Source of the DNA: an uncultured Bacilli bacterium
GTDB taxonomy: Bacteria > Bacillota_I > Bacilli_A > RFN20 > CAG-826
Length of the DNA: 64,000 nt
Reading direction: 5' to 3'
Assembly: GCA_944358865.1 (NCBI GenBank)
Contig: CALVRV010000003.1
Coordinates: forward strand, 18,843-82,842
Part shown: piece by piece, positions 27,646 through 46,003 of the stretch
Numbering within the stretch: the stretch's first letter is position 1
Layout of the letters: each line of letters opens with the position of its first letter
Made by a program: the position numbers and the translations under genes
Notes under the pieces: model-generated
Database searches by the model: none
What the model was told of the DNA's origin: nothing
The model's input: the letters and a program-made list of their open reading frames with translations, nothing else

Positions 27646-28715
27646 TGATTGAAAAAGTAGAAGAAAAAACATATATTACTTACCAATATGCCAGGTTTTA
27701 TAAAAGAGTGTTGGCTAATGTAATTGATTTTCTTTTCTTTTTATTATGTTTTGGTGTCTTATTTATTTCAATACGCGCGATTGTTAATAATTCAAGTCAA
27801 GGAAGAAGTGTTAGCGAACAATTAAGAACTATTCGTCTTGACAGCGGCCTTTATGTTGAAGTAGCATCTAGAGATAATGTTTTAATGGATGTTATTGCTT
27901 ATAATAATGAATTTGATCCTGCTGCATCTCAAAAAAGAAATAATGCGATTAGGGCAATTGAAAATTTTCTTACATATTGTGATGAATTATTTAATAATCC
28001 AGAAAGTGAATATTATAATCCTAGTAATTATGATGTTGTTTATAATTCATATTTAGATTATTTTTTAAATGAAGATTTACTTTACACAAATAGTAGTAAT
28101 ATTTCTGCTCCATATTTTGATTTAAATAATGTTGATGAAAATGGTTTTGCTATTGAAAGTGAAGCAGCTTTTGAATTAGGCGCTAAATACATAGATTTTT
28201 ATGAAAACTGTTATTCTCCATATATAAATGAAGTATTACAAGGATATCTTATTACTATTATTCCTAATTATTATGATTTAACTAAATTTTCTAGTGATAT
28301 GTTATTTTATGTTGAATTACCAATAAGTTATTGTTTATCAGGAATATTAATATATTTTATACCAACCTTAATTTTTAAAAGAGGAAGAAAGACATTTGGA
28401 AAGGCCATATATAAAATTGGCTTAATAAATAAAAACATGGTTAATCCTTCTTTTAAGATTAGTTTAGCTAGATTTTGTATATTTTATTTTTTAGAACTAT
28501 TACTCGCACCTTTTACTTTTTTAATTCCATTTATTATTTCTTTTACTTTAATGGTGTTTTCTAAAAAAAGACAAGGGTTTTGCGACTATATGTTAAATCT
28601 TTGCGAAGTTGACACTACAAGTATAAAAATATTTTATGATATACGTGATGCTAAAATTAATATGATTGATAAACCAACAAAAGATATTAATTTTAAGCAA
28701 AGAGACAATTTATAA
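27645..28715 (+). CDS. RDD-family membrane protein (paralogous architecture)
   Basis: YARFYKRVLANVIDFLFFLLCFG and KRGRKTFGKAIYKIGLINKN flank a loop of about 180 aa. The GTG start overlaps the upstream TAG by 1 nt. Confidence 0.45.
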   Translation: MIEKVEEKTYITYQYARFYKRVLANVIDFLFFLLCFGVLFISIRAIVNNSSQGRSVSEQLRTIRLDSGLYVEVASRDNVLMDVIAYNNEFDPAASQKRNNAIRAIENFLTYCDELFNNPESEYYNPSNYDVVYNSYLDYFLNEDLLYTNSSNISAPYFDLNNVDENGFAIESEAAFELGAKYIDFYENCYSPYINEVLQGYLITIIPNYYDLTKFSSDMLFYVELPISYCLSGILIYFIPTLIFKRGRKTFGKAIYKIGLINKNMVNPSFKISLARFCIFYFLELLLAPFTFLIPFIISFTLMVFSKKRQGFCDYMLNLCEVDTTSIKIFYDIRDAKINMIDKPTKDINFKQRDNL

Positions 28716-28741: not shown

Positions 28742-30637
28742 ATGAAGAATTCAAAACATTTTTTAAAAACACTATTAATATTACCTTTTTTATTATTAAG
28801 TGGTTGTTCATTAATTAAAGATATTAATAGCAGCACTAGTAGCACTACAAGTATGGATTTTTCAATTACAATTAATAATGGTGAAGAAGTTGATTTAATT
28901 ATTGGTGAAACTTTACAATTAGACATTAATTATCAACCTATCGAAAGTTATGAATTAATGTTTACTTCTTCTGATGAAAATGTTGCTAGTGTTTCTGATC
29001 AAGGATTAATAACTGCTAATAATGTTGGCCAAGCAACCATAACCGTAACATATAATAACAATAGCGATTCTATTATTGTTAATGTATTAGAAGATGAATC
29101 GTTTATTAAAATAACTAATAATGAAAATCCATTAAATGTAACACTTTTTGATAGTGCAATTATTTCATATATCACTAGCGATGATATTGAAAATGTTAAC
29201 GCCATATCAAGTAATGAATCAATTGTAAGTATTGTTTCTATTTATGATGATTTTGTCGAAATATCCGCTGAAAATGTTGGAAGTGCAATTATTACTATTT
29301 ATGCTGATGCATTTATTTTTGATGAAATAACTATAAATGTTTATCAAAATAATGACGGATATATAGAAATTTCTTTAGATCAATCTTCAATTATGGTTAA
29401 TGAAAACATTCTTATAAATGTTGATATTGATCCTATTGAATATCAAAATAACATTGTTTTTAATATTTTAAAAGGTAATGATTTAATAACATTAGAAGGA
29501 AATAGGATTACCGCTAATAAATCTGGAGAAGTTCAAATACAAGCTTCGTGTCATGATTTAGTGAGCAACATTTTAACATTGACAATATATGATTTTAAAA
29601 TCGAATTGACTAATTCTGTCATTGAATTAAACGACCATGAAAGATTAAGAATAATTAATTATGATGGTAGTAGAAACAACCTTCATGGTGAAGCTTTAGA
29701 TAATAGTATCATTTCTTTTGGACTTTCTCCAGTTGGTGATATTTTTGTTAATGGAGATAATGTTGGTAAAACATCATTTTACTTATATGATGATAATGGT
29801 TTATTTAGCAATACAATTGATGTTGAAGTTATAAGTGGTGATCCTTATGCTGGGATAAGTATGGAAGAATTTTATTCTTCTTATACTAGATCTGATTCAT
29901 ATATTGATTCTAAATATCGCACTCAACATAATTTCATGTCAGGAGATATCGTTACACCTGATGATGTACCTACTGTAGCAAGCAATCAACCAACTAGTAA
30001 TGGTTTATTAATTCATAATAGTGATAAAAATTATTCTAGTGACGGAAATACTTATACAGTTGAAGATAAAAATGGCAATAAAGCTTTTGATATTTATTAT
30101 GGTGGTGCTTATATTACCTTAGAAGAAGTAGCAGCATATATTTACGCTTTTGGAGATATACCTGTTAATTATATTGAAGATAATGAAGGCTACCCATCAT
30201 CATCACCATGGGGTGAATATCTAAGATTAAATCATAGTCAATTTTATGGTTGGTCTGACTCTTATGAGCCTGAATTACCAAATATCACTGGATGTGGTGG
30301 CAATTTAGTTTATTACGAACTTGATATTGGCACAACTGGCACTGATACTGGTCCACAATTTCCTAATCGTATTTATAATGATGGTTATAGAATTACTAGA
30401 GGTGCGGCTAGAATTGTCTATTCTAAATATTATCGTGGCAGTGGCCTTACTGTTAACGATGAAGATAGATATGTATTTTATACTTATAATCATTACAATG
30501 ATTTCCAAGAATATCTAAATTATAAAAATGGTTGGGGTTATATTTTTGGTAATATTACTGCTGGTAATGATCAAGATGAATATAATCGCAATAATCCACC
30601 TACACCATATATAGAAGTTGTTAGACAAGAATTATAA
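28742..30637 (+). CDS. surface lipoprotein with Big_2-type Ig repeats and a C-terminal barnase/binase-like (microbial RNase N1/T1 superfamily) domain
   Basis: Lipobox LLLSGC. The pattern NVASVSDQGLITANNVGQATITVTY recurs and is Big_2-like. The C-terminus aligns with barnase as I remember it: LEEVAAYIYAFGDIPVNYI, YYELDIG, GYRITRGAARIVYS and YTYNHYNDFQEY. Confidence 0.65.
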   Translation: MKNSKHFLKTLLILPFLLLSGCSLIKDINSSTSSTTSMDFSITINNGEEVDLIIGETLQLDINYQPIESYELMFTSSDENVASVSDQGLITANNVGQATITVTYNNNSDSIIVNVLEDESFIKITNNENPLNVTLFDSAIISYITSDDIENVNAISSNESIVSIVSIYDDFVEISAENVGSAIITIYADAFIFDEITINVYQNNDGYIEISLDQSSIMVNENILINVDIDPIEYQNNIVFNILKGNDLITLEGNRITANKSGEVQIQASCHDLVSNILTLTIYDFKIELTNSVIELNDHERLRIINYDGSRNNLHGEALDNSIISFGLSPVGDIFVNGDNVGKTSFYLYDDNGLFSNTIDVEVISGDPYAGISMEEFYSSYTRSDSYIDSKYRTQHNFMSGDIVTPDDVPTVASNQPTSNGLLIHNSDKNYSSDGNTYTVEDKNGNKAFDIYYGGAYITLEEVAAYIYAFGDIPVNYIEDNEGYPSSSPWGEYLRLNHSQFYGWSDSYEPELPNITGCGGNLVYYELDIGTTGTDTGPQFPNRIYNDGYRITRGAARIVYSKYYRGSGLTVNDEDRYVFYTYNHYNDFQEYLNYKNGWGYIFGNITAGNDQDEYNRNNPPTPYIEVVRQEL

Positions 30638-30931
30638 AAGTGTTGATTATTTCCTATTCAAATAAAAATTTATTTAATCTTTGACTTATTTTGTTTTTGA
30701 TTTATTATCAGAGAAAAATATTGAGTTTTTACCTGGTTTTTTATTTAATTTGCAACAAAAATAAGTCAATTTCACTTCTATAAATGTATCTTTACTTAAC
30801 ATTTTTATTACCTATTGTCAACTGGAAAAATTTTAAACTCTATTTTAAAAAAATAGTTTGCATAACTATGTAATGTGATTTAAAATTTAAATGCAATTAA
30901 TATGAGTATTAATAATTTCTGGAGATCTTCT

Positions 30932-32974
30932 ATGAGTAAAAAAATGATATTTGGCGCCCTAATGTCTTTATTAGGTGTTGCTAGTTTTGCTACGGCAAGT
31001 TTTTCTTTATCAAATAATGTAAAAGATGTTAAACAACCCGCTGTTAAACTTGCTGAAGAAGTTGATCCAACTTATGACGCTTCAGATTTTGCTGATGCTC
31101 AAGAATTGACAACCAGAGATTTAAAAATTTCCATTACTAAATCCGCTGTTACTAGTAAGACTCAATCATACGACGTTAATTTTTCTAGCCAAGTTGAAAC
31201 TTGGACAAATCGTCATAGATTAATTTGGGTCATAATTAATGATGATAATTTTACATCTGCAAACGATTACCCTGCATTAGAAGGTGAAGAAGAAAAAAAT
31301 ATGCCTCATTTTACTGGAGCGGTATATGGTATAGATGACTCTGATGATGGCGATATATACATTCCTCGCTATATGAGTTATACGACAAGATTTACAATCG
31401 ATGTTTCTTCAATAAATGGTGGTGTATTATCAGACGATGCTCTAGAAACGACTAAAAATATCTATATTCATAGTGAAATAGATACAATTGGCGAAGATGC
31501 TTTTTCTAATTTTGCTGATTCTAGTCAAGTTCACATTTATTGCGAAGCAAGTGAAAGACCTGATGGCTGGTCTGAAAATTGGACTGATGTACCTGAAGAA
31601 AATATTACCTGGGGATATGAATTTACCGACAAAATTTATACTGATATCGATCGTAATGTCAGTGGAACATCTCAGCCTTATGGTACTGGAAAAAACTTTT
31701 TCTTAGGTTTTAAAGATGAAACAAAAGGTATTAATTTACCTCTTGTCATTAAATATGATTCTAAAAATACAAGCACTGGTGAAATTACAACTAATTATGA
31801 AGAACTTCCAATAGTCCCTGTCAACGCTTCTTTAGCGGGTACCTCTCGTTATGAAGGTGTTGGAAGTAATGTTGCTATGACATCATATTCTAAAAATATT
31901 GATATTGAATTAGAACCAAACGAAGAGATATTAGATGACACTATATCCTTTTATAATATATATCCTGTTGAAATAGTGACTAGCGAGACTAGTTCGGTTC
32001 CAGTTTTTGTTCCTAAAGAAGACGAACCTTACTGGGGCGATTGTTCTATTAACTATGTAAAAAAAGAAAATATTAATGAATATATCACTTATGATTTTGA
32101 ATTAAGCTCATCTTTTAGTGGATATACCTCTTTACAATTACGTGTTAATAAAGTTAATGGAATTTATGAACAAGTAAAAGGTGACTTATACGAAACAAAT
32201 TATAATGATATTGCTAGCGGAAGAGTTACGATTAGATATCGTTTTACTGCTTTAAATAATGCTCAATATAGAATTATTTATGAAGATAATGGTGAATTGG
32301 TAGAAAGTATTGTTAATATCAATACTCCTATTCCTAGATTTATCTTAGAATCTCAAACAGATAACAACGTCTCATTTTTAATTGAAAATAGCACTATTGG
32401 TGAAAACTTTGACGCTAGTAAAGTTAAATATCTATCATTATTAGGTTTAAATGTTACTTTAGATTTGTTTACTGAATCTGGAACAATCTTAGTTAAATCA
32501 TCAACAACTACAAGATTTGGCGAAATACCTTTATTTGATACGATAACTGCTGATGGTGTTTTAAATTATTATGATGGAGATGCGGTTTTGATTTGGACGT
32601 CCATTGCATTTGTTTGTGTTTATGTTATCGGGGCAATTATTTTATATTTCTACTTAAGAAATAAATTCAAAAACGATGAATTTAGAAGAATGAAACCTAA
32701 AAAATATCTAAAAAGTGCAATTATTTTAGGTTGTGGATTATTAACAGCGATATTAGCTATTATATTTATCTTCTTTAGAAGTGTTCCATTTAACAACGCT
32801 ATTGTTGTGTTTAATCCATTAGATATATACGTAATCATCTTTACAATTGTCTCTGTTTTCTTTGCTGGATATTATATTCGTTTACTAGTCCATACAGTTA
32901 AAACCAGCAAAGAAAGAAAACGTATTTTAAAATTAAAATTGGATGAAACGTCAGATGATGACGGTACTAAATAA
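30932..32974 (+). CDS. large membrane-anchored surface protein, unknown function (one BspA-type LRR-like unit; C-terminal multi-TM anchor)
   Basis: GGAG precedes the ATG at 30932. N-terminal signal [61 protein letters not shown] is LRR_5-like. Three or four hydrophobic helices lie in the last ~130 aa. Confidence 0.5.
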
Positions 32975-32991
32975 ATATTAAGGAGAAAATT

Positions 32992-34917
32992 ATGGAAATT
33001 AGAATTAAAGATTTGACTAAAATCTTCCCAGGTGATCCAAAGAAAAATATCCGCGATACTATTGCTGTTAAAGATTTGGATTTTGTTGTTCCTGATGGTC
33101 AATTAGTTGGTCTACTTGGTCCTAGTGGATGTGGTAAATCTACTACACTTTATATGATTAGTGGTTTACAAAATCCTACCAGTGGTGAAGTTTGGTTTGG
33201 TGATCAAGAGGTTACTAATCTTTCTCCTGAAAAAAGAGGTATTGGTTTAGTTTTCCAAAACTATGCTTTATATCCTCATATGACTATTTATAAAAATATT
33301 GAGTTTCCTTTGACTAACCTAAAAGTTGAGGTTCCTTTAGTGGAATTCTATAGTTATAAATATGTTAGTGAATACGATCTTAAAAAAGATGATAAATCAT
33401 ATTTTATTATGAGATCTATTCGCTCTTTAATGATGAAAGCTGGTTTAGGACCTTTACAATATCGTATTAAATTAAATAAAAACAAAGAAAATAATCACTT
33501 AACCATTAATATCGAATTAAATAAAGTTAACAAAGACGCAAATGAGATGGTTAAAGCACAATTCCCAGAAATATTAAAAACTGAATTAACTCTAGTTGAA
33601 GAAAAACAAGTTAGTCAACCATTATATGATTCTTCATTTAGAGCGACAGTTAAAAATATTAGCGATAAAGCATGCATTTCATTAACATTTAAAGGTAATT
33701 TAACTAAAAAATTTGATGTCAGCACGATTGATGATACGATAAATGCTGCTAAAAATGTTATTAAAAATAATAAATTTGGTCGTATTGAAGGTGTTTTAAT
33801 TACACGTACTCAAAGTGGTGGCTATGAATTAATGGCTATGTTAAATAATCTTTATTTCTCTCGTTTAGATGAATGTGTTAAAGCATTAAGTGAAATTTAT
33901 GATTTTGCTGGTGTTAATACATTTGTTACTGATATGCGTGATAAAGAATTAGAAAAAACTATTAAAAATGATTTAAAATTAGAAAAAATTACTTATTCAG
34001 ATTTTAAATTATATTTTGATAAGAAAAATATTAAAGTCTATTTTAAATTGGTAAAAGCTAGCCAAGAAGACGCTAAACGTGTTTTAGAAGGTCTAGCGGA
34101 AAAATTACATTTTGAAGACCAAGAATTAAATTCTAGTTTAGCTATCTCACATCGTAAATTAACAAAAGAAGAAAGAAGATCAATTGTTATTGCAACCGCA
34201 AAACTTGTTCAAGTTGATGAATATTTGCAAAGAAAACCTTCTCAATTATCTGGTGGTCAGCAACAACGTGTCGCTATTGCTAGAGCCTTAGTTAAAAAGC
34301 CAAAAGTCTTATTATTAGACGAACCATTATCTAACTTAGATGCACGTTTAAGACTTCAAACTAGAGAAGAAATTAGAAGAATTCAAAAAGAAACAGGAAT
34401 TACAACTGTATTTGTTACTCATGACCAAGAAGAAGCGATGTCTATTTCTGATAAAATAGTTGTTATGAAACTTGGTGAAATGCAACAAATTGATGCACCT
34501 CAAGAAGTTTATAATTCACCTGCTAATTTATTTGTCGCACAATTCCTTGGTACTCCTCCAATCAATGTCTTTAAAGGAAAAATTAAAGATAATAAAGTAT
34601 ACATTGGGGAAGATGTTATTTATTCTTTAGAAGAAAAATCAAAAGATCGCAATGTTTATGTTGCAATTAGACCTGAAGGATTCTCTATGGCAACTAAAAA
34701 AGACAAAGAAGTATTAACTGCTAAATTAAGCATGATACAAGTTTTAGGTAGAGATATTTCTATTGTTGCAACAAATCCAAATTGCACTAAAGAAAGCTTT
34801 AAAGTAATTATTTCTAGCGAAGATAGAAGCGATGATGAAGATTTAACATTCAAAGTTAAACCTAATAAGATGTTCTTATTTGACGGTGAATCTGAAGAAA
34901 GAATTTATATTAAATAA
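32992..34917 (+). CDS. ABC transporter ATP-binding protein, UgpC/MalK type, with an insertion of about 275 aa in the helical subdomain
   Basis: Walker [10 protein letters not shown] and Q-loop [40 protein letters not shown] and VTHDQEEAM then appear only after an intervening segment of about 275 aa. The C-terminal regulatory domain is MalK-like. Confidence 0.85.
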
Positions 34918-34931
34918 ATTTGGTGAAAGTT

Positions 34932-36002
34932 ATGTTTAATTTTAAGAAAAAACAACAACTAGAAAGCGTAGAAGTAAGTGGTCAAGTTGCAGCTTTACCA
35001 CCAGAATCTATGTATGATGAAAAAGATAACGTCGTTGTTAGACTAGTTTCACATCGCAAAAATAAAAAACCTTATCAAATTACTGGTATTGAAGACGTTT
35101 CTGCAAAAAATAACTGGAAAGCATGGCTATATTTAGGACCTGTTATCGTTTTAATTGCCGTTTTCCTTATTTATCCTTTGATCAATACCATTTTCATTGC
35201 TTTTACAGAAAATTATCAATATGCATCAGGAACATTTGATGGTTTTACAATTAATAATTTTGGTGTTATTTTGGGCTTAACACCTACATCAACTGGAGCA
35301 TTTGAATCTAATTTTACTAGATACGCTATTCCAAATACCTTTATTATTGTTTTCGTTACTGTTCCTTGTTCTACCGCTTTAGCGCTTATTATTTCTGTTG
35401 CTCTAAATTCTATTAAGTGGTTCCAAAAAGTTTTACAAACAATATTCTTTTTACCATATGTCACTAACGCTATTGCTATTGGTATGGTGTTTAGTGTTAT
35501 TTTTGATAAAAATGGTATTATTAACTACTTATTTAATTCTGATATTACTTGGATTTATGGTGCTGATCCTAAAATAGCTATGATTCCACTTTGTATTTAT
35601 ATTGTTTGGTCTTCTATACCATTTAAGATTTTAGTTTTCTTAAGTGGCTTACAAGGCATTGACAAGCAATATTATCAAGCTGCACAAATTGATTCATGTA
35701 GTAAGGCTAAAACATTATGGAAAATTACTGTTCCATTATTATCACCACAAATACTTTATATTTTAGTTACATCATTTATTGGTGCATTTAAAGAATATAC
35801 TTCTGTTGTTGGTTTATTTGATGGACCTGGTACAATGGGCACAAATGGTGATCCAAATATGGAAACAATCGTTTTCTATATTTATGAAAGATTATCGCAG
35901 CAAACATCTCTTGCCGCTGCTGCAGCTGTATTCTTATTTGTCATTATCTTATTATTTACTTTACTACAATTTATTGTCTCTAAATCGAGAGTGCATTATT
36001 AG
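34932..36002 (+). CDS. ABC transporter permease (UgpA/MalF-like)
   Basis: Six-TM protein with an EAA-like loop: QAAQIDSCSKAKTLWKITVPLLSP. GGTGA precedes the ATG at 34932. The track start at 34920 is a TTG. Confidence 0.85.
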   Translation: MFNFKKKQQLESVEVSGQVAALPPESMYDEKDNVVVRLVSHRKNKKPYQITGIEDVSAKNNWKAWLYLGPVIVLIAVFLIYPLINTIFIAFTENYQYASGTFDGFTINNFGVILGLTPTSTGAFESNFTRYAIPNTFIIVFVTVPCSTALALIISVALNSIKWFQKVLQTIFFLPYVTNAIAIGMVFSVIFDKNGIINYLFNSDITWIYGADPKIAMIPLCIYIVWSSIPFKILVFLSGLQGIDKQYYQAAQIDSCSKAKTLWKITVPLLSPQILYILVTSFIGAFKEYTSVVGLFDGPGTMGTNGDPNMETIVFYIYERLSQQTSLAAAAAVFLFVIILLFTLLQFIVSKSRVHY

Positions 36003-36019
36003 GGAAGGAGGGTTTTGTT

Positions 36020-37021
36020 ATGTTAGAAAATGTTAAAAAATTATTTAAAGTCAAATCAAAAGAAATAGAAAATCCTTATCCTGAATTTAAGCTTGAAACT
36101 GATAATATTGTTTTATCAATTGAAGAGGCTGGACGCACTGTCGATTCTATTAAAAGACAGGAAATGGTTACAAAAATTATTTCAACAATATTTGTCTATA
36201 TATTTATTGTTGCTTTGGCTTTAGCATTTGTTTTCCCGTTTTATTGGATGGTTATTACATCTTTAAAACAAAGAACTGAAATTATTGCGACCGAACAAAC
36301 GTTTTTCCCAACAATTGTCATGTGGTCAAACTATGTTTATGTTTTCCAAGTATTTGATTTTGGAACATTTATGTTTAACACAATTGTTGTTGCGATATTC
36401 TCCACAATCGGAACGTTATTAACAACTATTTTTGCCGCTTTTGCATTCGCAAGATTAAAGTTCAAAGGTCGCGAATCATTATTTATGGTCTTTTTAATGA
36501 CTATGATGATTCCTGGCGAAATGATGGTTATTTCTAACTACGTCACGGTTGCTTCGTTTGGATGGGTTGGTGAAGGCCAAACATTAATTGAAGCTTATCT
36601 TTGTATGATTGTTCCATTTTGGATCAGTGTATTCTACATTTATTTGTTAAGACAAAACTTCAAACAAATACCTAATGAACTATATCTTGCTGCTAAAGTA
36701 GATGGAAAATCTGATTGGTCATTCCTTTGGAGAGTTATGGTTCCATTAGCAATGCCTACATTAATTTCTATTACCATTTTAAAATTTATGGGGACTTGGA
36801 ATTCTTATGTGTGGCCAAACTTAGTTACACAGGAAGATTCATTTAAACTCATAAGTAATGGTTTAAGAGATTCAACCTTCGTTGACGCTGATAGTGGCCA
36901 AACTGAATATGGTTATCAAACTGCAGCGACAATGTTAGTTACTGTTCCATTATTCTTATTATTCATCTTCTTTAGAAAATACATCATGCGTGGTGTAGGA
37001 AGAGCGGGTATTAAAGGATAA
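36020..37021 (+). CDS. ABC transporter permease (UgpE/MalG-like)
   Basis: EAA loop LAAKVDGKSDWSFLWRVMVPLAMP. Strong RBS GGAAGGAGGG. Confidence 0.85.
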   Translation: MLENVKKLFKVKSKEIENPYPEFKLETDNIVLSIEEAGRTVDSIKRQEMVTKIISTIFVYIFIVALALAFVFPFYWMVITSLKQRTEIIATEQTFFPTIVMWSNYVYVFQVFDFGTFMFNTIVVAIFSTIGTLLTTIFAAFAFARLKFKGRESLFMVFLMTMMIPGEMMVISNYVTVASFGWVGEGQTLIEAYLCMIVPFWISVFYIYLLRQNFKQIPNELYLAAKVDGKSDWSFLWRVMVPLAMPTLISITILKFMGTWNSYVWPNLVTQEDSFKLISNGLRDSTFVDADSGQTEYGYQTAATMLVTVPLFLLFIFFRKYIMRGVGRAGIKG

Positions 37022-37071
37022 TATACTTAGTCTATAATTAAACTAGACATAGAAACCTTAAGGAGGAAATT

Positions 37072-38634
37072 ATGAAAAAAAGTCGTTTATTATTAGCGTT
37101 ACCAGTAGCGATGGCAGTATTATTAAGCGCATGTGCTCCATCTACTACAACTACAACATCTGGAACAAGTGAAGATCCTACTACAACTACTACTAGTGAA
37201 CCAGATCCTACTACAACAGATCCTACCACAACTACTACTGAACCTGGTCCAAGCGGTGATCATTTCATTAACGAAGCTACAACTATCACATTCTGGTCAA
37301 CATTTAATGATTCTTATCAAACAGTTATTCAAAATGTTGCTGCAGCATTTAAAGAAATTGAACCTAATGTTACTGTTAATATCGTAAAACAAAGTGGTTC
37401 ATATGATGACATTGCAGATTTAGTCATTCAAGGTTTTGCTGTTAATAATTATCCTGATATGGTTGTTTCTTATCCAGACCATGTTGCTAATTACATTAAC
37501 TATAACAAAGCTCTTGATGTTGAACCATATATGACAAATTCTAATTATGGTTGGAGCGATGAAGATTTTGATGATATCTTACCTAACTTCTTAGAAGAAG
37601 GTGAATCTTATTCTATTCCTGGTGTCTATTCATTACCATTTGCTAAATCTACTGAAGCAATGTTTTATAATGAAGATGTTTTAGTCGGATTAAATTTAGC
37701 TTCTATTGATCCAACTATTAATAACGGATTACCATTAACTCATGATTATTTAAATAATTTAACCTGGGAAGAACTTTTTAATAAATTATGCCCAGCTATT
37801 TTAAGATACAACACTGAAGTAAAACAAATTTTATTAGAAACCGAAGCTCACCATGCCGTATTTGGTTATGATAGTGATGATAACTTATTCATTACCTTAG
37901 CCCAACAATACGGATACGATTATACAGCTTTAGATCAAAATACCGGTTATGCTGAAGTTTTATTTAATAACGATGGTATGAAAGGATTAATGAAAAAATT
38001 TAATTCTTATTATCATGATGGTTATTTAATTACCAAAGGTACTTCTGAAGGTGGATATACCAACTCCTTCTTTACAAAACGCAATACCTTATTCTCTGTT
38101 GGCTCAACAGGTGGATATAAATATCAAGCTGATGGCGCTGACTTCAATGTTAGTGTTGCTAATATTCCTCATGCTGAAGGAAAAGAAAGATATGTCATTA
38201 ACCAAGGTCCTTCTATTTCTATTTTAAAAAGCACTGCAAGTGATGCTAATAACAGAGCACTTGCAAGCTGGTTATTCTATAAATTCTTAACAAACACTAC
38301 CAATTCTACATATTGGGCAACCGAAACTGGTTATATGCCTGTTAGATATTCTGTTTATGAAACTGAAGCTTTTATGGATTACGCTAACACTGATGGCAAA
38401 CCTCAAATGTCAACCGAATTATTAGGTGCTAAAACTGCTAGATTCTCTCAAGTTGTTTCTTCTTCTGATGAATTATTCTTCTCACCAGTATTTAAGGGAA
38501 GTAGTGAAGCAAGACAACAAGTTGGTTCTATTATGACTCAATCCTTATTACAACCTGAAGCAGATTTCACTGATACATGGTTAAATGGTATTTTTGAAAA
38601 AGCAGTTAACGAAACTTTATTAGCAATGTCTTAA
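37072..38634 (+). CDS. ABC substrate-binding lipoprotein (SBP family 1) with a Thr/Pro-rich stalk
   Basis: Lipobox LLSAC, then STTTTTSGTSEDPTTTTTSEPDPTTTDPTTTTTEPGP, then ITFWSTFNDSYQ..., a typical SBP_bac_1 start. Confidence 0.75.
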   Translation: MKKSRLLLALPVAMAVLLSACAPSTTTTTSGTSEDPTTTTTSEPDPTTTDPTTTTTEPGPSGDHFINEATTITFWSTFNDSYQTVIQNVAAAFKEIEPNVTVNIVKQSGSYDDIADLVIQGFAVNNYPDMVVSYPDHVANYINYNKALDVEPYMTNSNYGWSDEDFDDILPNFLEEGESYSIPGVYSLPFAKSTEAMFYNEDVLVGLNLASIDPTINNGLPLTHDYLNNLTWEELFNKLCPAILRYNTEVKQILLETEAHHAVFGYDSDDNLFITLAQQYGYDYTALDQNTGYAEVLFNNDGMKGLMKKFNSYYHDGYLITKGTSEGGYTNSFFTKRNTLFSVGSTGGYKYQADGADFNVSVANIPHAEGKERYVINQGPSISILKSTASDANNRALASWLFYKFLTNTTNSTYWATETGYMPVRYSVYETEAFMDYANTDGKPQMSTELLGAKTARFSQVVSSSDELFFSPVFKGSSEARQQVGSIMTQSLLQPEADFTDTWLNGIFEKAVNETLLAMS

Positions 38635-38707
38635 TACCTATATTATTTATTAATACCTATTTATAAACTTCATTTTATTTAAAAATTACACCACAAGGAG
38701 GTAATTT

Positions 38708-40231
38708 ATGAAAAAACTATCTTTGATTGGTGTTGGAGCACTTGTCGTAGCGCTAGGTCTTGTAGCTTGCGAGCCTAGCGTTACTACAACGACAAGTGGC
38801 ACTAACACAGATCCTACAACAACTACAAGTCAAGAACCAGCCAAAAATGTTACGATTACTTTCTGGCATACTTTTGGTCAATCAATTGTTGAAACACTTA
38901 CTGAAAAAATTCAAGAATTTCATGACCTTGTTTTAGAAAACGAAAACGTAAATGTTACAGTTGAATTATCATATTCTGGTTCATATGATGATATTTTAAC
39001 CAAAATTAACAATGGTTTCTCTGCTGGTAATATTCCTACTATCGCAGTTGCTTATCCTGACCATGTTGCAGATTATTTATCTAGAGAAACTTATGATGGT
39101 CAATATGTTGTTAATTTAGAGCCTTATATTAACAATGAAGAATATGGTTTTAATACTCAACCATACCTTGGTGATGAAGAAGGCTTAGATGATTTTATTG
39201 AATCTTATTATCAAGAAGGTACTTCCTATGCAAAAGAAGGTGTCTTCTCCTTGCCATTAATGAAATCAAGCGAAGTTATGTTTTATAATGAAAACATTAT
39301 TTCTCTTGCTTTAACCGGTAATTCAAATTTCCAAGGATATAAACCTACTCCAGATTTTATTCCTAGTGAAACAAATATTAGAAATTATATGGAAAATCTT
39401 ACTTGGGATGAATTTATGAATTTCTGTCAATTCATTAATGATAATAAATCTTATTTTGCTAACACTATTGAATATCCTGCATATTATGATAGTGATGGTA
39501 ACTTATTTATTACTAAAATGTATCAAAATGATATTCCTTATGCTTCTGTTGATGAAAATGGCAGAGGTGTCATTGAATTTGAAAGTGGCACAGCAAGAAC
39601 TCAAGCTGAACAATTAATTGCAGATCTTAATGCTGAACACGAAGCAGGATTATTTACCACAAAAGGTGTTGAAGGCACATATGGTAGTAATAACTTTACC
39701 GAAGTAAAATCAGTTTTCTCAATTGGTTCTTCTGGCGGCACTGGCTATACTGTTCCCACCAGCGGCACATTTAATGTTCGTGCCGTTAAAGTTCCATATG
39801 ATAATGACAATCCTATCTATGTTTCCCAAGGCCCAACATTATGTATTATGAACAATCCAAGATACAGTGAAGAAGAAAATTCTTTAAGACAAGAATATGC
39901 TTGGAGATTTATTAAATATTTAACTAACGCTGAAGTTAATGTTGAATTATGTATTCGTGGAAGTAATGGATATGTTCCAGTTAGACATTCTGCTTATGAA
40001 AGTGAAGATTTTACCTCTTTCTTATTAGGTGGAGATATTTATGCTGAAACCGCATCTGTTATTTTAGACGATATTAATAACGAATTTATTGTTAGTCCTG
40101 TTTTTAAAGGTTCTGCAGAACTTAGAGAACAAGGTGGCAGTATTATTACTAGTGTTTTCACTGATCAAAAAACAAATATTACCCAAGCTTTTGACGATGC
40201 AATTAACGAAACAAAGATTGCAATGTCTTAA
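38708..40231 (+). CDS. second ABC substrate-binding lipoprotein (paralogue)
   Basis: Lipobox LGLVAC, a Thr-rich stalk, then ITFWHTFGQS.... The shared C-terminal motif SPVFKGS and the ending ...NETxxAMS match 37072-38634. Confidence 0.75.
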   Translation: MKKLSLIGVGALVVALGLVACEPSVTTTTSGTNTDPTTTTSQEPAKNVTITFWHTFGQSIVETLTEKIQEFHDLVLENENVNVTVELSYSGSYDDILTKINNGFSAGNIPTIAVAYPDHVADYLSRETYDGQYVVNLEPYINNEEYGFNTQPYLGDEEGLDDFIESYYQEGTSYAKEGVFSLPLMKSSEVMFYNENIISLALTGNSNFQGYKPTPDFIPSETNIRNYMENLTWDEFMNFCQFINDNKSYFANTIEYPAYYDSDGNLFITKMYQNDIPYASVDENGRGVIEFESGTARTQAEQLIADLNAEHEAGLFTTKGVEGTYGSNNFTEVKSVFSIGSSGGTGYTVPTSGTFNVRAVKVPYDNDNPIYVSQGPTLCIMNNPRYSEEENSLRQEYAWRFIKYLTNAEVNVELCIRGSNGYVPVRHSAYESEDFTSFLLGGDIYAETASVILDDINNEFIVSPVFKGSAELREQGGSIITSVFTDQKTNITQAFDDAINETKIAMS

Positions 40232-40246
40232 TAATAGGAGGTAACT

Positions 40247-41761
40247 ATGACAAAATTTAAATCATTATCTTTATTATTAGGTGTTGGTGTTCTTGCTGTT
40301 TCTTTAGCTAGTTGTACTCCAGAAACTACAACTACAACTACAACAACTACAGAAGAGCCACCTACAACAACAACTACTACTAGTGAAGATTCTTTACCAG
40401 AATGGGTTGATTATGTTCATTCTGGAGAAGTCCAATTAACTTTAGATTATGAAGGACATGACTTTTATCAAGATGGTATTGGTCAAATGACTTTACAATA
40501 TGAAGGTCAATGTATTGATGGAGACACTGTCCACTTTACACCATTAGTAACTACAACTAGTAGCGAAAGAATTAAATCTAGATTCTATGGTGTCGATACA
40601 CCTGAGTCAACTGGACAAATTCAAATGTGGGGTAAAGAAGCTAGCGATTTCACTCATGAAAAAGTTTGGAACGCTGCTCAAAATGGAACAATTGTTTTAT
40701 CAAGTCCATATAATGATTATCATAAACCAGAAACTGATTCTACTGGTGAAAGATATGTTACTTTAGTTTGGATTAATGAAACAAAGAAAAACGCTCCAAA
40801 AGAAGAATTAGTGTTATTAAATCTTTGGCTCGTTCAAGAAGGATATTCTACCGCTAAAAACGTTACTGATTTCCCAGAAATGGCAACAGTATTTGTTCAA
40901 GCTGAAACTCAAGCTATTGCATATAAATTACATATGCATAGTGATGAGATTTCACCTTCATGGCCACCCGATGATTATAAAGTAGTTTCTTTATTAGATC
41001 TTAAAAAATCTCTTGAACAAACTTTGGAAGATCCTAATTATGATAATCCATATGATAATGTAAGAATTATCTTTACTGGAACAGTCGCAGGTTATGCAAA
41101 TAACATTTTATATTTAGTGCAACATTTTAGTGAAGAAGAGGGTGCGCGTTACCCGGGTGGTGAATATGCTGGTATCAACATATTCTGTGGTATGAGCCAA
41201 ATTCCTAGCAAATATAGTGTTAGAAACACATATTTAGAAATTCATGGTACAGCTACTTTAAGTAATTTTGGCTTCCAAATTAGTGACGTCCAAGGAAGAT
41301 TCCCAAATTCTGTTTCTTATTCTGAACACGATGCAAAAATTTTAAGAACAGCTGAAGAAAATGCTGAAACTGAAGATTCATTACATGTCTTTGAATATAC
41401 AGCAGAAGAATTAAATGATGTCGTCAATGCGACCGATTTACAAACAAAATATGAATGTCTAAATGCTTATGTTCAAGTGACTGAACCTTTAACTGTTCAA
41501 GATGTTTATGTTGCTGCTAGTGATGAAATAACTCTTTATTTATCTGGGTGTGACTTTGATGCTTATGTAACATTTATGTATGCTGGTGATCCAAATAATT
41601 CATACCAATATTGGGTTAAAGAAGCAGATTGGATTGGAAAACGTTTACTCATCAGTGGGCTTTATGTCTACCATGATTCAATGTCAGGAAGAAGATCTTG
41701 GCAAATCAACCCATGTTCTCCTAGCGATGTTGTTTGGGTTGATGCACCTAGTGCTGAATAA
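40247..41761 (+). CDS. staphylococcal (micrococcal) nuclease-domain surface lipoprotein with an OB-fold-like C-terminal region
   Basis: Lipobox SLASC and a TTTTTTTTT stalk. SNase motifs are IDGDTVHF, RFYGVDTPES, GKEASDF, DSTGERYVTLVW and LVQEGYS. Confidence 0.8.
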   Translation: MTKFKSLSLLLGVGVLAVSLASCTPETTTTTTTTTEEPPTTTTTTSEDSLPEWVDYVHSGEVQLTLDYEGHDFYQDGIGQMTLQYEGQCIDGDTVHFTPLVTTTSSERIKSRFYGVDTPESTGQIQMWGKEASDFTHEKVWNAAQNGTIVLSSPYNDYHKPETDSTGERYVTLVWINETKKNAPKEELVLLNLWLVQEGYSTAKNVTDFPEMATVFVQAETQAIAYKLHMHSDEISPSWPPDDYKVVSLLDLKKSLEQTLEDPNYDNPYDNVRIIFTGTVAGYANNILYLVQHFSEEEGARYPGGEYAGINIFCGMSQIPSKYSVRNTYLEIHGTATLSNFGFQISDVQGRFPNSVSYSEHDAKILRTAEENAETEDSLHVFEYTAEELNDVVNATDLQTKYECLNAYVQVTEPLTVQDVYVAASDEITLYLSGCDFDAYVTFMYAGDPNNSYQYWVKEADWIGKRLLISGLYVYHDSMSGRRSWQINPCSPSDVVWVDAPSAE

Positions 41762-41783
41762 TCTACATTAGGAGGTAATTGTT

Positions 41784-42263
41784 ATGTTATATTGTTCTAA
41801 CTGTGGTAAAAGAATTGATGAAAAGAAAATCGAAGCAAAAAACAATTCTTTAATTATGCAAAATGATGTTATAAACGAAAATACTAAAGTCGTTTATATT
41901 TGTCCTCGTTGCGAGCATCATATTCACCGCGATTTAGAAGAAATAGAAATTAAGCAATTATCTCGCGCAGCACATGCTGAAATACAAAGAAGTAATAACT
42001 TTTTTGCTTCTGGTATGGGCAATGTTTGTATTGGCGCTATTGCACTAGTTTTAGCTGTCATATTCTATTATTTATCTTGTGATTTAAACAACCAAATGAA
42101 ATTAGATATGTCAAGCGCGGAATTTTATGTGTTTTTAGTGCTTACCATTGTTGGTGGTTTGTTATTAGTAGCGGGTGTTGTTTTAGCCTTGGTTGGTTTA
42201 ATAAAAAAGGCTAGATACAATAATCTGCTTAAGGATATAAATAATAAGACTTTTATCCAATAA
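41784..42263 (+). CDS. zinc-ribbon membrane protein, unknown function
   Basis: CSNCGKRI...CPRCEHHIH is a four-Cys ribbon, followed by two hydrophobic helices. RBS AGGAGG. Confidence 0.6.
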   Translation: MLYCSNCGKRIDEKKIEAKNNSLIMQNDVINENTKVVYICPRCEHHIHRDLEEIEIKQLSRAAHAEIQRSNNFFASGMGNVCIGAIALVLAVIFYYLSCDLNNQMKLDMSSAEFYVFLVLTIVGGLLLVAGVVLALVGLIKKARYNNLLKDINNKTFIQ

Positions 42264-42331
42264 TCTAATAAGAAAGTCTACTTCAAATTCATTTATAGAT
42301 GAATATTGCGATGAATATATAGGAGGAAATT

Positions 42332-45208
42332 ATGAAACTAAAATTATTACCAATCGCATTACTTGCTGTTGTTGGTTTTACTTTAGCAGGTTGTACTCCA
42401 GAAGCTAGCTCGACAAGCCAGCCAACTGTGACGACAACTACAACTGAAGAACCCCCATCAACAACAACAACCACTACAGATCCAGGTCCAAGTGTGACCA
42501 AATTTGAAATTAGTAACAAGACTGATTTAACTGCTGAATGGCATGTTGAAGATGCTGATAGACTAATTAGATTTGACATTGAACCTGCTGCTAATCCACA
42601 AGTTTTAATTAATAATGGTGAATTAGTCATTACATCTAGCAATACTGGTGTCGTTAGTGTTCTTTCTGCAAACTTACACGCCGTAGCAGCTGGACAAGCT
42701 ACTATTACCGCTACATATGCAGGTTTAACCGACACTGTTGAAATTACTGTTTTAGAAAAAGTTGTTTCTCCTGCAATGAAAATTGCTGCTTTACGTGATG
42801 CTATTACAGCTGGAGAAATCGTAAAAGAAGATGAAGTAGTCGTTAATGGTGTTATTACTGCTTATTTTGAAAGCCCAGATCATACATATGCTGGTGCCTT
42901 TATTCAAGATGGCGCTGATGCTATTTCTCTTTATGCTGGTAGCATTTCAAAAGATTTTGAAGCACTAGGTTTAAAACTTGGTGATATAGTTAGAGTTGAA
43001 GGTGCGCTAGATATTTATAATGGTCTAGAACAAATTAAACCTACCGCAATTACTCTTGTCGAAGATGATACTTTACAAAAACCTCAAATTCTTGAAGTTA
43101 CTGATTTTAGCAAATTTAACGCTACCGATTTAGCTCAACAATCTGGTCGTTTAATTAAAGTTACTAACGTTCCATATATTGGTTTAGCTGATAAAAACGA
43201 AATTAGTATTGATGATACTAGTGGTAACCATTACACTGTTAATTTTGGTACTGCAGAACACACAATTCCATATTATGTAAATTATCATGCTGGTAAAAAT
43301 GCTAGAAATAATATTGCTGGTATTTTAAAAGCCTTAGAAGCTGGTGACACTGTTGATTTATATGGTGTTATTGGCTGGTATAATTCACCACAAATCTCTC
43401 CAGTTTATATGATTGGAAGAGATGCTGGTGATTGTATCGTTCCTACTACAGCATTAGATACTCCAACCGCTGTTAGTATCGATACCACTGATCCAGTTTA
43501 TATTGACGTTAATACTGAATTCAGCGCTACTGTTACTCCAAGTGGTGCTAATCAAGCTGTTTTATGGTCCGTTGATGACGCTACCGTTGCTGAAGTTGAT
43601 CAATATACAGGTATTGTCAAAGGATTAAAAGAAGGTACTGTTAATTTAACTGCTACTTCTCGTGTAAATAGTAGTGTTAAAGTTAGCAAAGCTTTAACTG
43701 TTACTGCTGAACCAGTTGACCCAGATGCACCTATAATGATGGAAACTCCAGTCGCTGGACAATATATTGCTGGTATGTTAAATACAACCAATAATACTAC
43801 ATATTACATGATTGGTGGTTTAACTGATCCAAATAATGCTTATTATGCTACAAGCACTAATCCAAACGAAGCTATGTATGTTACGTTAGCCGCCTCTGGT
43901 GATGGCTGGACAATGCAATTAGCAAACGGAAAATATATTGCTGTTGAAGACGGCACAAACTATAACAATCCAATTGAATCTGATACTCCATTTGTTTGGA
44001 CTTGGAATAGTGAATATCATACATTTACCGCTATCGTTGACTCTACAAGAGAAAACGATGATGGTTCTTTACAATATCCTGATGGTAGAGAAATTTTCTT
44101 AGGCACCTATGGAACTTTTGGTACTATTGGTGTTTGTGATGAATATCGTTTTGAAGATGGAAATTACCCATTACATTTATATTCTTACACTATCGTTGAT
44201 GAACCAGTCGACCCAGATGCACCAGTTGTCATGGAAACTCCTGTCGCTGGACAATATATTGGTGGAATGACCGCAAATGATGGTGCTAATTATTATGCTA
44301 ATGGCGAGACCACTGGCAATTACAATAACTATTTAGATACAGATACAAATCCAAATAATGCTATGTATATTTCCTTAGCCGCTTCTGGTGAAGGTTGGAC
44401 ATTACAATTTGCAAGTGGAAAATATATTGGTATCGGAGATGGCGATTCTAATAATAATATCGTTTTACTTGACGAAGCCTTTGTTTGGACTTGGAATAGT
44501 GAATATCAAACATTTACCGCTACTGTAACATCAACTGCAACTGATAAAGATACAGGTGAAACTTTATATCCTGATGGTAGAGAAGTTTATATGGGAACAT
44601 ACAAAACATTTACAACCATTAGTAGAAGCGATACTTCCTTTATGGGTGAAGATGGACAATGTTATTTCCATTTATACACCTATACTATCGTTGATGAACC
44701 AACTCCAGAACCAACCCCGAGCGAATTAATGGCAACATTAGATTTTAGTGCAGTTGAATATGTAAAAGATGAATTAACAGAAAAATTAACAGTAGAAGCA
44801 TTACAAACGATTTTAAATTCAGGTTTAACAGTTGTTGATGGTAAAACATTAACTGTTACTGTTTCATCGACTGACAATATTTATGCTGGAAACGGCACCG
44901 GCGGATATATTGAAAATCAAGGTGGATTTTTAAAAGCAGGAACCAGCAGTAAAAATGGCTCTATAGTACTAAATTTGAGCAGCGAAATTGTTCGTGTTGA
45001 AATTGATTGTGTAAAATGGAATGATAAGTCTTCTGATGAAGTTACTGTAAATGGCGTAACTTTAGATGCTCCTGCATATGAAAACGAAACATTTGGAACA
45101 TTAGGTTTTGATTTTAGCGCAACAACACAATTAGAAATCACAACCGCTAAACGTTGCTTCATTAAAGCTATTAGAGTTTATTGCGCAACCACTACTGTTA
45201 GTGAATAA
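42332..45208 (+). CDS. 958-aa surface lipoprotein: Thr-rich stalk, Big_2 domains, OB-fold-like modules and two 164-aa tandem repeats
   Basis: Lipobox FTLAGC. Big_2-like AAGQATITATYAGLTDTVEITV and KEGTVNLTATSRV. The OB-like segment VVVNGVITAYFES...GDIVRVEGALDIYNGLEQIKP resembles the modules in extracellular nucleases such as YhcR. Confidence 0.65.
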   Translation: MKLKLLPIALLAVVGFTLAGCTPEASSTSQPTVTTTTTEEPPSTTTTTTDPGPSVTKFEISNKTDLTAEWHVEDADRLIRFDIEPAANPQVLINNGELVITSSNTGVVSVLSANLHAVAAGQATITATYAGLTDTVEITVLEKVVSPAMKIAALRDAITAGEIVKEDEVVVNGVITAYFESPDHTYAGAFIQDGADAISLYAGSISKDFEALGLKLGDIVRVEGALDIYNGLEQIKPTAITLVEDDTLQKPQILEVTDFSKFNATDLAQQSGRLIKVTNVPYIGLADKNEISIDDTSGNHYTVNFGTAEHTIPYYVNYHAGKNARNNIAGILKALEAGDTVDLYGVIGWYNSPQISPVYMIGRDAGDCIVPTTALDTPTAVSIDTTDPVYIDVNTEFSATVTPSGANQAVLWSVDDATVAEVDQYTGIVKGLKEGTVNLTATSRVNSSVKVSKALTVTAEPVDPDAPIMMETPVAGQYIAGMLNTTNNTTYYMIGGLTDPNNAYYATSTNPNEAMYVTLAASGDGWTMQLANGKYIAVEDGTNYNNPIESDTPFVWTWNSEYHTFTAIVDSTRENDDGSLQYPDGREIFLGTYGTFGTIGVCDEYRFEDGNYPLHLYSYTIVDEPVDPDAPVVMETPVAGQYIGGMTANDGANYYANGETTGNYNNYLDTDTNPNNAMYISLAASGEGWTLQFASGKYIGIGDGDSNNNIVLLDEAFVWTWNSEYQTFTATVTSTATDKDTGETLYPDGREVYMGTYKTFTTISRSDTSFMGEDGQCYFHLYTYTIVDEPTPEPTPSELMATLDFSAVEYVKDELTEKLTVEALQTILNSGLTVVDGKTLTVTVSSTDNIYAGNGTGGYIENQGGFLKAGTSSKNGSIVLNLSSEIVRVEIDCVKWNDKSSDEVTVNGVTLDAPAYENETFGTLGFDFSATTQLEITTAKRCFIKAIRVYCATTTVSE
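43709..44695 (+). repeat. in-frame tandem duplication, 2 x ~492 bp, inside the 958-aa lipoprotein
   Basis: Unit 1 begins gaaccagttgacccagatgcacc at 43709 and unit 2 begins gaaccagtcgacccagatgcacc at 44201. At the protein level EPVDPDAPxxMETPVAGQYIxGM...FVWTWNSEYxTFTA...YPDGRExxxGTY...HLYxYTIVDEP occurs twice. Confidence 0.85.
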
Positions 45209-45230: not shown

Positions 45231-45262
45231 AGTAAGGCTGGCTTACGTCAGCCTTACTTTTT
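45231..45262 (+). terminator. rho-independent terminator ending the long lipoprotein/ABC operon
   Basis: AGTAAGGCTG pairs with CAGCCTTACT around an 8-nt loop, followed by TTTT. Confidence 0.85.
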
Positions 45263-45540: not shown

Positions 45541-45984
45541 ATGAAAACACCAAACATAACTACATTAAAAAAATATTTTTCTTCTTTAAAAAAGATGAAA
45601 AGAAAATATGTTACTAGTGAATTGCTTTCAAAAGAAGTTGGAGTGTATCCTGATATTATTAATGAAACATTTTCTTATTTTGATCCAATGGTAAATCTTG
45701 ATTATCAATATAATTTAATGGATCTTTTTGACCAACTAGAAAATCTAATCAATGATCTAAGTAAAGAAAGCGAAAATAAACCCCATAAAAAATTAGTAAC
45801 AAAAAAGCAATTAGAACAATATTCATCAATAAATGATTTTGTTTATCAAAAAATGTCTATTGGTGGATTAATTGATAGAAGTGCATATCTAACTGATACT
45901 GATTTAAGAACTTTAAAAAGGTTAATAAATCAAGAACAATTAGCAAGAAAAAATACTTTAAAGAAAAATAAGAAAAAAAGATAA
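45541..45984 (+). CDS. Rex-N-terminal-like winged-helix DNA-binding protein lacking the NADH-binding Rossmann domain
   Basis: LKKYFSSLKKMKRKYVTSELLSKEVGVYPDIINETFSYFDPMVNLDYQYNLMDLF parallels the Rex segment RLPLYYRFL...[40 protein letters not shown], recalled from memory. There is no GxGxxG motif. The C-terminus is coiled and Lys-rich. Confidence 0.5.
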   Translation: MKTPNITTLKKYFSSLKKMKRKYVTSELLSKEVGVYPDIINETFSYFDPMVNLDYQYNLMDLFDQLENLINDLSKESENKPHKKLVTKKQLEQYSSINDFVYQKMSIGGLIDRSAYLTDTDLRTLKRLINQEQLARKNTLKKNKKKR

Positions 45985-46003
45985 TTTTTTATACTTTTTC
46001 TTT

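Follow-up and report, generated by a model that had tools for sequence, protein, structure and literature searches.

The stretch of DNA analysed here (the window) comprises 64,000 nucleotides (nt) from an uncultured Bacilli bacterium (CAG-826, RFN20; GCA_944358865.1, CALVRV010000003.1:18,843-82,842, forward strand), has a G+C content of about 30% and uses the standard bacterial code. Positions 30932-45208 carry a predicted operon of nine co-directional genes on the plus strand, in which a gene for a predicted surface nuclease of the staphylococcal nuclease (SNase) type is combined with those of an ATP-binding cassette (ABC) importer, and the present analysis concerns this block and the substrate that it may import. 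Also present in the window are the rpoB/rpoC genes, the genes of EF-G and EF-Tu, an L10 leader, and a 16S rRNA gene of which the start is included. The features of the block and its flanking signals are listed below; lengths of proteins are in amino acids (aa), and SBP denotes a substrate-binding protein.

30638-30931, plus strand: AT-rich non-coding spacer (294 nt); sigma-70-like hexamers, GGAG as ribosome-binding site
30932-32974, plus strand: first gene, surface protein of 680 aa with leucine-rich repeats (LRR) and three transmembrane (TM) helices; GGAG lies 7 nt 5' of the ATG, and the gene callers give 680 aa
32992-34917, plus strand: ABC ATPase of the UgpC/MalK type, 641 aa; ABC_tran in two stretches, UgpC model
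34920-36002, plus strand: ABC permease, UgpA/MalF-like; BPD_transp_1 with E 2.3e-21, UgpA/MalF models
36020-37021, plus strand: ABC permease, UgpE/MalG-like; BPD_transp_1 with E 1.3e-16, UgpE with E 3e-28
37072-38634, plus strand: binding lipoprotein SBP1; SBP_bac_8 with E 3.4e-25, Thr/Pro-rich stalk
38708-40231, plus strand: binding lipoprotein SBP2; SBP_bac_8 with E 4e-18, an old paralogue of SBP1 with 36% identity
40247-41761, plus strand: SNase-type lipoprotein, 504 aa; PF00565 with 31 bits against a cut-off of 21, lipobox LASC
41784-42263, plus strand: small membrane protein with a Zn-ribbon; N-terminal CxxC...CPxC, then two TM helices
42332-45208, plus strand: large lipoprotein, 958 aa; LAGC, Big_2 (E 5.4e-10), an oligonucleotide/oligosaccharide-binding fold (OB-fold), Big_2, two repeats of about 150 aa and a C-terminal domain
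45231-45258, plus strand: intrinsic terminator closing the operon; 12-bp stem with 6 GC pairs, followed by a T-run

The genes of the block are separated by gaps of 14, 17, 17, 50, 73, 15, 22 and 68 nt, and the terminator is followed by a tRNA-Lys gene at 45319. Apart from the terminator at 45231, the promoter-like and terminator-like matches inside the block occurred at the counts found in shuffled sequence. Co-transcription of the nine genes is suggested by the short gaps, the single terminator and the conserved gene order described below. In the upstream spacer, TTGACT-16-TATTAT was found at 30681-30708, and no riboswitch was detected in 30638-30931, where the Rfam matches had E values of 3 or worse and the folding z-score was 0.30. 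An earlier interpretation of this DNA, made from its letters and open reading frames (ORFs) and referred to here as the sequence-only reading, had named a series of ORFs, all of which exist where it placed them, and its gaps of 14-73 nt and strong terminator at 45231 were both recovered. It had counted ten genes after an RNase-like lipoprotein gene, whereas there are nine, the number to which its own list sums; and the gene for its 690-aa first protein is present, but the start is most likely at 30932, which gives 680 aa, and not at the ATG at 30902. The search with domain hidden Markov models that it had proposed returned ABC_tran, two BPD_transp_1 domains, an SBP_bac_8/SBP_bac_1 pair, the SNase domain PF00565, and Big_2 in both large lipoproteins.

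Five proteins of the region, namely the four lipoproteins of the block and the RNase-like neighbour, are proposed to be lipoproteins with the lipoboxes LSGC, LSAC, LVAC, LASC and LAGC, as read from their translations, and the window also carries the gene for Lgt (prolipoprotein diacylglyceryl transferase). This Lgt gene, at 53571-55142, is unusually long, encoding 523 aa of which only aa 160-416 are spanned by the LGT domain. Thr/Pro-rich stretches (e.g. TTTTT...PTTTT) stand directly after the lipobox Cys in SBP1, SBP2, the nuclease and the large lipoprotein (37072-45208), and these stretches may be flexible or glycosylated stalks.

Relatives of the nuclease were collected by a pattern scan using one genome per GTDB species, which gave at least 519 of them; the best 80 were analysed by calling ORFs in their loci and assigning each ORF to the best-matching window protein. 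These 80 all come from metagenome-assembled genomes (MAGs) of the 'Bacilli bacterium' type from uncultured gut or rumen species, among them Clostridium sp. CAG:288, Candidatus (Ca.) Enterosoma, Ca. Onthovivens and Ca. Alectryobacillus. The order of membrane protein, ATPase, permease, permease, SBP1, SBP2, SNase and Zn-ribbon protein was identical in every locus long enough to be assessed (66-79 loci), with median intergenic gaps of 11-48 nt and median identities ranging from 29% for the membrane protein to 75% for the second permease. The identity of the SNase fell to about 40% across the loci, yet the gene order was unchanged, and the conservation of the block is far beyond chance. The large lipoprotein gene follows the Zn-ribbon gene in about 66 loci and is variable. 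One SBP1-like gene followed by one SBP2-like gene was found per locus in about 72 loci, and because this order is kept in each, the duplication predates the divergence of these species. Directly downstream of the block, two of the loci (L008 and L035) carry genes for an ATPase, permeases and binding proteins once more, as a paralogous second set. As for the host, Ca. Enterosoma belongs to the GTDB order RFN20 and the family CAG-288 (PMC8035907), a family predicted to lack peptidoglycan. RF39, a neighbouring uncultured order to which the named relatives do not belong, has been described as strongly reduced in genome size and as auxotrophic in many respects (PMC6784871). The host lineage appears to be genome-reduced and to lie in or near RFN20, an order next to Mycoplasmatales.

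The nuclease gene starts 15 nt after SBP2. A protein identical to this nuclease is encoded on metagenome contigs, the longest of which (83 kb, ENA assembly ERZ24773521) has the same gene order. The equivalents of SNase D21, R35, D40, T41, E43 and R87 are D93, R112, D117, T118, E120 and R169 and were invariant in 63 sequences; the predicted catalytic and Ca-site residues are thus intact. Its AlphaFold2 (AF2) model, with a predicted local distance difference test (pLDDT) score of 93.6, superposed on SNase structures with TM-scores of 0.80-0.88 and showed that the C-terminal 265 aa form two additional beta-rich domains. These 265 aa had no family match and no PDB sequence match, and the fold search with the full model gave them no fold match, as its match list was filled by SNase variants.

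The core of the transporter resembles the UgpB-UgpAEC systems of E. coli and M. tuberculosis, which carry glycerol-3-phosphate and glycerophosphodiesters, in that it has a CUT1 architecture and that, among NCBIfam models, those of Ugp rank first for the ATPase and the permeases. All the scores, however, fall far short of the equivalog cut-offs set for Ugp (the ATPase reached 349 where 432 is required, and the UgpB model 34 where 411 is required), and the block differs further in its operon context, which includes a nuclease and an OB-fold protein, and in an insertion of about 267 aa in the ATPase. This insertion (aa 114-385, window 33331-34146) lies between the Q-loop region and the signature motif, in the helical subdomain, and UgpC model positions 97-355 match the ATPase again at aa 381-638. 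The length of the ATPase was about 636 aa in 65-70 loci, with a near-invariant core and an insertion that is poorly conserved in sequence; since the length is conserved, the insertion is a stable feature, and it matched no Pfam or NCBIfam family. For the UgpA-like permease, the gene caller placed the start at 34932 (356 aa), and it was the UgpE-like permease that reached the median identity of 75% across the loci.

The identity of the substrate was approached through SBP1 and SBP2. The AF2 model of SBP1 had a pLDDT of 96.2, and its best folds in Foldseek were the dinucleotide-binding protein (DnBP) of T. thermophilus, 7C0F, and mutants of it including 7C0V (E 7e-23, TM-score 0.8), the identity of 7C0F being taken from the PDB entry titles in the fold search. 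This protein is reportedly that of an ABC transporter described, with its mutants, by Chandravanshi and colleagues in FEBS J in 2021 (PDB 7C0F). In a phmmer comparison of SBP1 with PDB sequences, DnBP also came first (1.6e-13, against 2e-8 for UgpB); SBP2 matched DnBP variants and nothing else there; and a profile of 62 family members likewise placed DnBP (8.4e-20) ahead of UgpB (3.6e-17). DnBP is thus the closest solved relative of both SBP1 and SBP2, in sequence and in fold. Eight mutated DnBP residues are named in the PDB titles and were located by comparing the mutant sequences in the alignments: Y56, F79, N81, S127, Y224, T240, Y246 and Q274 correspond to Y111, Y134, D136, S193, Y329, S345, Y351 and Q378 of SBP1, so that five are identical and three are conservative at an overall identity of 19%. 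SBP2 carries the same eight residues as SBP1, and six of the eight were invariant in 62/62 family members. The SBPs of the window differ from DnBP in being about 65 aa longer and in being lipoproteins with Thr-rich stalks, in addition to the low identity of about 19%, and we know of no nuclease in the Thermus DnBP locus. The end products of SNase are 3'-mononucleotides and dinucleotides, which fits a binding protein of the dinucleotide type. Taken together, sequence and model place both SBPs in a cluster formed by UgpB and DnBP, whose ligands are phosphodiesters or phosphomonoesters, with a modest lean to the dinucleotide binder. The sequence-only reading had called the imported substrate undefined, with which we agree; the candidates are narrowed here to the ligands of this cluster, and the substrate would most likely be short nucleotide fragments, possibly dinucleotides.

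The remaining three proteins of the block are a large lipoprotein and two membrane proteins. The large lipoprotein had been described in the sequence-only reading as an OB-fold/Big_2 protein, and both kinds of domain were found: the PF01336 OB-fold of the window copy, at aa 188-241, is below threshold (E 2.8e-4), and it is clear in 11/50 homologues (best E 9.6e-13). The median query coverage across the loci was 0.16 and the part shared is N-terminal (aa 60-200), so this is a modular, fast-changing component of the block; it is likely a nucleic-acid capture protein. A match to the extracellular endonuclease ExeM/NucH was weak, covering model positions 1-108 of 546, which are the OB-fold part, with 19 bits against a cut-off of 300, and neither the 958-aa protein nor any of 50 homologues showed an endonuclease/exonuclease/phosphatase domain. 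Its repeats and C-terminal domain had no family match.

The 680-aa protein consists of a signal or anchor sequence, an ectodomain of BspA-type LRRs, three C-terminal TM helices (identified by inspection) and a cytoplasmic part with the conserved motifs NDEFRR and, at the terminus, DDGT. It is first in the block in 66 loci, with a median identity of 29% and the C-terminal third as the conserved part. A homologue search gave only 4 matches, owing to the fast evolution of the family. With a profile built from 39 homologues, the cell-surface LRR protein of PDB 4gt6 was matched (E 1.3e-16), LRR_5 was found in 3 members of the family, and the locus-derived profile had an LRR match only. The Zn-ribbon protein follows the SNase gene in 79 loci with a median identity of 44%; conservation is at least 90% in both Cys pairs and in a juxtamembrane motif, and its matches to zinc-ribbon Pfam families were weak. 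These LRR/3-TM and Zn-ribbon/2-TM proteins are probably accessory subunits.

The arrangement has known counterparts in mycoplasmas. In M. agalactiae, P80 (MAG_5030), the SNase MAG_5040 and a three-gene ABC importer of the sugar type (MAG_5050..5070) are adjacent and transcribed together, an arrangement conserved in the M. hominis group, and the study put forward a model in which the nuclease supplies the transporter and P80 is the binding protein (PMC3585158). The M. bovis genes MBOVPG45_0311..0307 are known as a 'putative nucleotide transporter operon', in which the ATPase gene has 2103 nt; the MslA-MGA_0676-ABC genes of M. gallisepticum form an operon of the same type, as cited in PMC4045577; and MPN133-136 of M. 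pneumoniae and the mhp379 locus of M. hyopneumoniae are further counterparts. The mycoplasma operons share with the window a surface lipoprotein of the SNase type beside an ABC importer that resembles UgpC/A/E, a surface lipoprotein in the same operon that resembles an SBP, and an oversized ATPase (the 2103-nt gene of M. bovis compared with 641 aa here), which is a likeness in length; the hosts on both sides are wall-less or wall-poor, genome-reduced relatives of the Bacilli. In contrast to the mycoplasma operon, the order in the window is ATPase, permeases, binding proteins and then nuclease; the binding protein is duplicated, and this duplication is old; the nuclease has 504 aa with two extra beta-rich domains, compared with 285-390 aa in mycoplasmas; the LRR/3-TM, Zn-ribbon/2-TM and OB-fold proteins are conserved genes of the window version only; and the genetic code is standard.

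With an intact SNase lipoprotein set among ABC genes, a UgpC/MalK-type ATPase and two UgpA/E-type permeases, the locus would belong to the operons that combine an SNase lipoprotein with a CUT1 importer. The proposal that it is a mycoplasma-type module (a surface nuclease with a CUT1 UgpC/A/E-like importer) in a mycoplasma-related, genome-reduced lineage is therefore supported. Two other parts of the sequence-only reading fared less well. The idea that two dedicated binding proteins had been added to the module does not hold, as an SBP-like lipoprotein (P80/P81/MslA) is already encoded first in the mycoplasma operons, and what is new is the old duplication. The pathway of binding, cutting and import that had been suggested there is not a novel one; it was proposed for M. 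agalactiae and for M. gallisepticum and M. bovis in 2013-2014 and has been repeated in reviews, so that the model is an existing hypothesis. New here are DnBP as the closest solved relative of the SBPs, the two conserved membrane proteins and the two extra beta-rich domains of the SNase protein.

We propose that the block serves the capture of nucleic acid at the cell surface, its cleavage by the SNase, and the uptake of small phosphodiester products through the SBPs and the CUT1 importer, and we put the probability of this at roughly 0.6. At the cell surface, Thr/Pro-rich stalks would carry five lipid-anchored proteins. The lipoprotein with OB-fold and immunoglobulin-like (Ig-like) domains, together with the two extra beta domains of the nuclease, would hold extracellular DNA or RNA, which the SNase domain would cut to mono-, di- and short oligonucleotides. 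SBP1 and SBP2 would then capture small phosphodiester products and hand them to the CUT1-type importer, formed by the two permeases and the enlarged UgpC-like ATPase, with an inward direction of flow presumed. This proposal is supported by the synteny of the block, the SNase residues, the relation of the SBPs to DnBP, the OB-folds, the lipoboxes together with Lgt, the co-transcribed mycoplasma counterpart, the highly reduced genomes reported for relatives of the host lineage and the predicted lack of peptidoglycan in CAG-288.

Several points weigh against this proposal. In the Foldseek search with the SBP1 model, UgpB of E. coli and M. tuberculosis came close behind DnBP (E 6.8e-22), and in the family profile the two scored nearly equally (3.6e-17 for UgpB, 8.4e-20 for DnBP). 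Part of the conserved site (the Tyr, the acidic residue or Asn, and the Ser) may be common to the whole UgpB/DnBP cluster, and glycerophosphodiester ligands are therefore also compatible with the evidence. The crystal ligand of DnBP, UpG, has no terminal phosphate, whereas SNase leaves 3'-phosphates. The putative link of the SBPs to mycoplasma P80/MslA comes from partial matches to NCBIfam lipo_P68 that score far under its cut-off of 200 bits (E 4.9e-11 with 42 bits, and E 3.5e-7 with 29 bits). The placement in RFN20 used here was taken from the names of related MAGs. Finally, the proposal is drawn from genes, their conservation and predicted folds.

A narrower version of the proposal, which we regard as tentative, is that the block encodes a dedicated importer of dinucleotides or short oligonucleotides, in which the limit products of the SNase would be taken directly by the two DnBP paralogues, the LRR/3-TM and Zn-ribbon/2-TM proteins would be accessory membrane subunits not described before, and the whole would be ancestral to the mycoplasma operon. 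If this were true, a dedicated dinucleotide importer would provide the first substrate for the long-studied nuclease-linked ABC transporter of mycoplasmas.

Among the alternatives, a Ugp-like importer of glycerol-3-phosphate or glycerophosphodiesters, serving lipid or phosphate supply under lipid auxotrophy with the nuclease and the OB-fold lipoprotein sharing in phosphate scavenging, survives best, and we consider it rather unlikely. In its favour, UgpC, UgpA and UgpE are the models that fit the ATPase and permeases best, UgpB structures are almost as close to SBP1 as DnBP is, and the related order RF39 is reported to be without fatty-acid synthesis (PMC6784871). Nevertheless, both SBPs are closer to DnBP by sequence, with SBP2 matching DnBP alone; the aromatic and Gln positions mutated in DnBP (F79, Y224, Y246 and Q274) all have conserved counterparts; and in about 79 species the nuclease gene is kept inside the transporter operon, with the SBP genes on one side and the gene of a conserved membrane protein on the other. 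It is improbable that the block is an ordinary CUT1 importer of oligosaccharides whose co-transcribed nuclease is an unrelated surface enzyme acting, for example, in the clearance of biofilm or extracellular DNA. Homologues are annotated as 'multiple sugar transport system substrate-binding protein', the M. bovis version as an oligosaccharide transporter, and sugar-binding proteins are present lower in the fold list; however, the family profile scored them 5-15 orders of magnitude below the DnBP/UgpB group, Pfam and NCBIfam scans found no glycoside hydrolase in the block, and the linkage to a nuclease is kept from this lineage to mycoplasmas. Least plausible is a competence-like DNA-uptake or cell-contact machine, in which contact to DNA or to a partner cell is made by the OB-fold and LRR surface proteins and incoming DNA is processed by the nuclease for recombination instead of nutrition, because the same scans found no ComEC-, ComEA- or pilus-type genes in the block, CUT1 importers carry small solutes, and the nucleoside-binding mycoplasma lipoprotein P48, whose control of conjugative-element uptake might favour this idea along with the adhesin-like LRR ectodomain and the OB-fold lipoprotein present here, is from a different binding-protein family.

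Two genes beside the block were also analysed.

27645-28715, plus strand: RDD-family membrane protein; PF06271 with E 8.9e-12, a conserved neighbour of the module
28742-30637, plus strand: RNase-like lipoprotein; lipobox LSGC, Big_2 domains with E 3.4e-9, a C-terminal barnase-like domain of 270 aa

The RNase-like lipoprotein matched PF00545 with E 3.5e-3 and 18.3 bits, below the Pfam cut-off of 24. The family of its C-terminal domain has 295 representatives, and PF00545, which was matched by 6/25 members, all below threshold (best E 2e-4), was the sole recurring Pfam match. In hhalign, a 25-member alignment of the domain aligned with a barnase sequence entered by hand, with a probability of 85.7% and E 5.5e-6, and an E, an R, a further R and an H that are invariant in the 25 sequences were in register with barnase E73, R83, R87 and H102; a D is likewise invariant. 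Neither the single sequence of the domain nor its profile matched any PDB sequence, and the assignment to barnase therefore rests on hhalign and the invariant residues. The domain resembles barnase/binase (RNase N1/T1, PF00545) in that the alignment covers all 110 aa of barnase and includes the catalytic Glu, two Arg and the His, and it differs in that its core contains two insertions (about 12-17 aa), some 100 aa are added at the N-terminus, and it is fused to Ig-like domains and a lipid anchor. On this alignment it is a genuine RNase-type domain. No barstar-like ORF was found beside the gene in the 265-nt gap examined.

The barnase-like lipoprotein noted in the sequence-only reading thus has a real RNase-type domain, but its membership of the module, to which it was said to add an RNase, is not borne out: such a domain lies within 10 kb of the block in 1/80 related loci (L064) and is absent from 79/80, 294 non-coding nt separate the gene from the block, and it is the RDD gene that adjoins the block in 43 loci. 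The single other copy, an 876-aa protein with a barnase-like C-terminal domain at L064:16492-19122, is placed after the large lipoprotein; since it sits elsewhere, an RNase lipoprotein has been recruited beside the module at least twice, in different positions. The RNase-like gene is a lineage-specific neighbour outside the conserved operon, and as it is nearly absent elsewhere while the order of the block is kept, the conserved unit is the nine-gene block. In the proposed pathway, the neighbouring lipoprotein would add the digestion of RNA in this lineage only. The RDD gene lies immediately 5' of the membrane-protein gene in 43/80 loci, with a median gap of 92 nt, and just 3' of the large lipoprotein gene in 9 further loci, so that it stands beside the block, on either side, in 52/80. 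In the window, it is the last of three tightly packed genes (25708-28715) encoding a ZIP zinc transporter, a 365-aa protein without a family and the RDD-family membrane protein itself.

Further from the block, the stretch 12001-17772, between rpoC and the ribosomal-protein/EF-G genes, has a very low G+C content (22% in 12001-14000) and encodes a protein with Schlafen AlbA_2, HATPase_c_4 and winged helix-turn-helix domains, an M6-peptidase-like protein and two proteins without a family; it may be an inserted island. On the 3' side, 45541-49601 encodes two proteins, the first of 147 aa with a Rex-like winged helix at its N-terminus (E 7e-8, a score far under the cut-off) and the second a pyruvate:ferredoxin oxidoreductase of 1191 aa, a pair that recurs 3' of the block in about 9-16 related loci. 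A tRNA-Pro(GGG) gene lies at 50536-50612 on the minus strand, and all called protein genes of the window are on the plus strand.

The surface nucleases of mycoplasmas have been studied as factors of virulence and nutrition, and the cargo of the adjacent ABC transporter has never been identified. The locus described here represents a fuller form of the mycoplasma module, conserved in the best 80 of at least 519 relatives and found in uncultured gut and rumen species, and it offers, from the nearest solved structure, a ligand hypothesis of dinucleotide-type phosphodiesters. The two conserved membrane proteins and the insertion of the ATPase may be general features of this class of transporter. 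If the proposed pathway is correct, it would account for the way in which wall-less gut bacteria with reduced genomes live on the extracellular nucleic acid that is abundant in their habitat.

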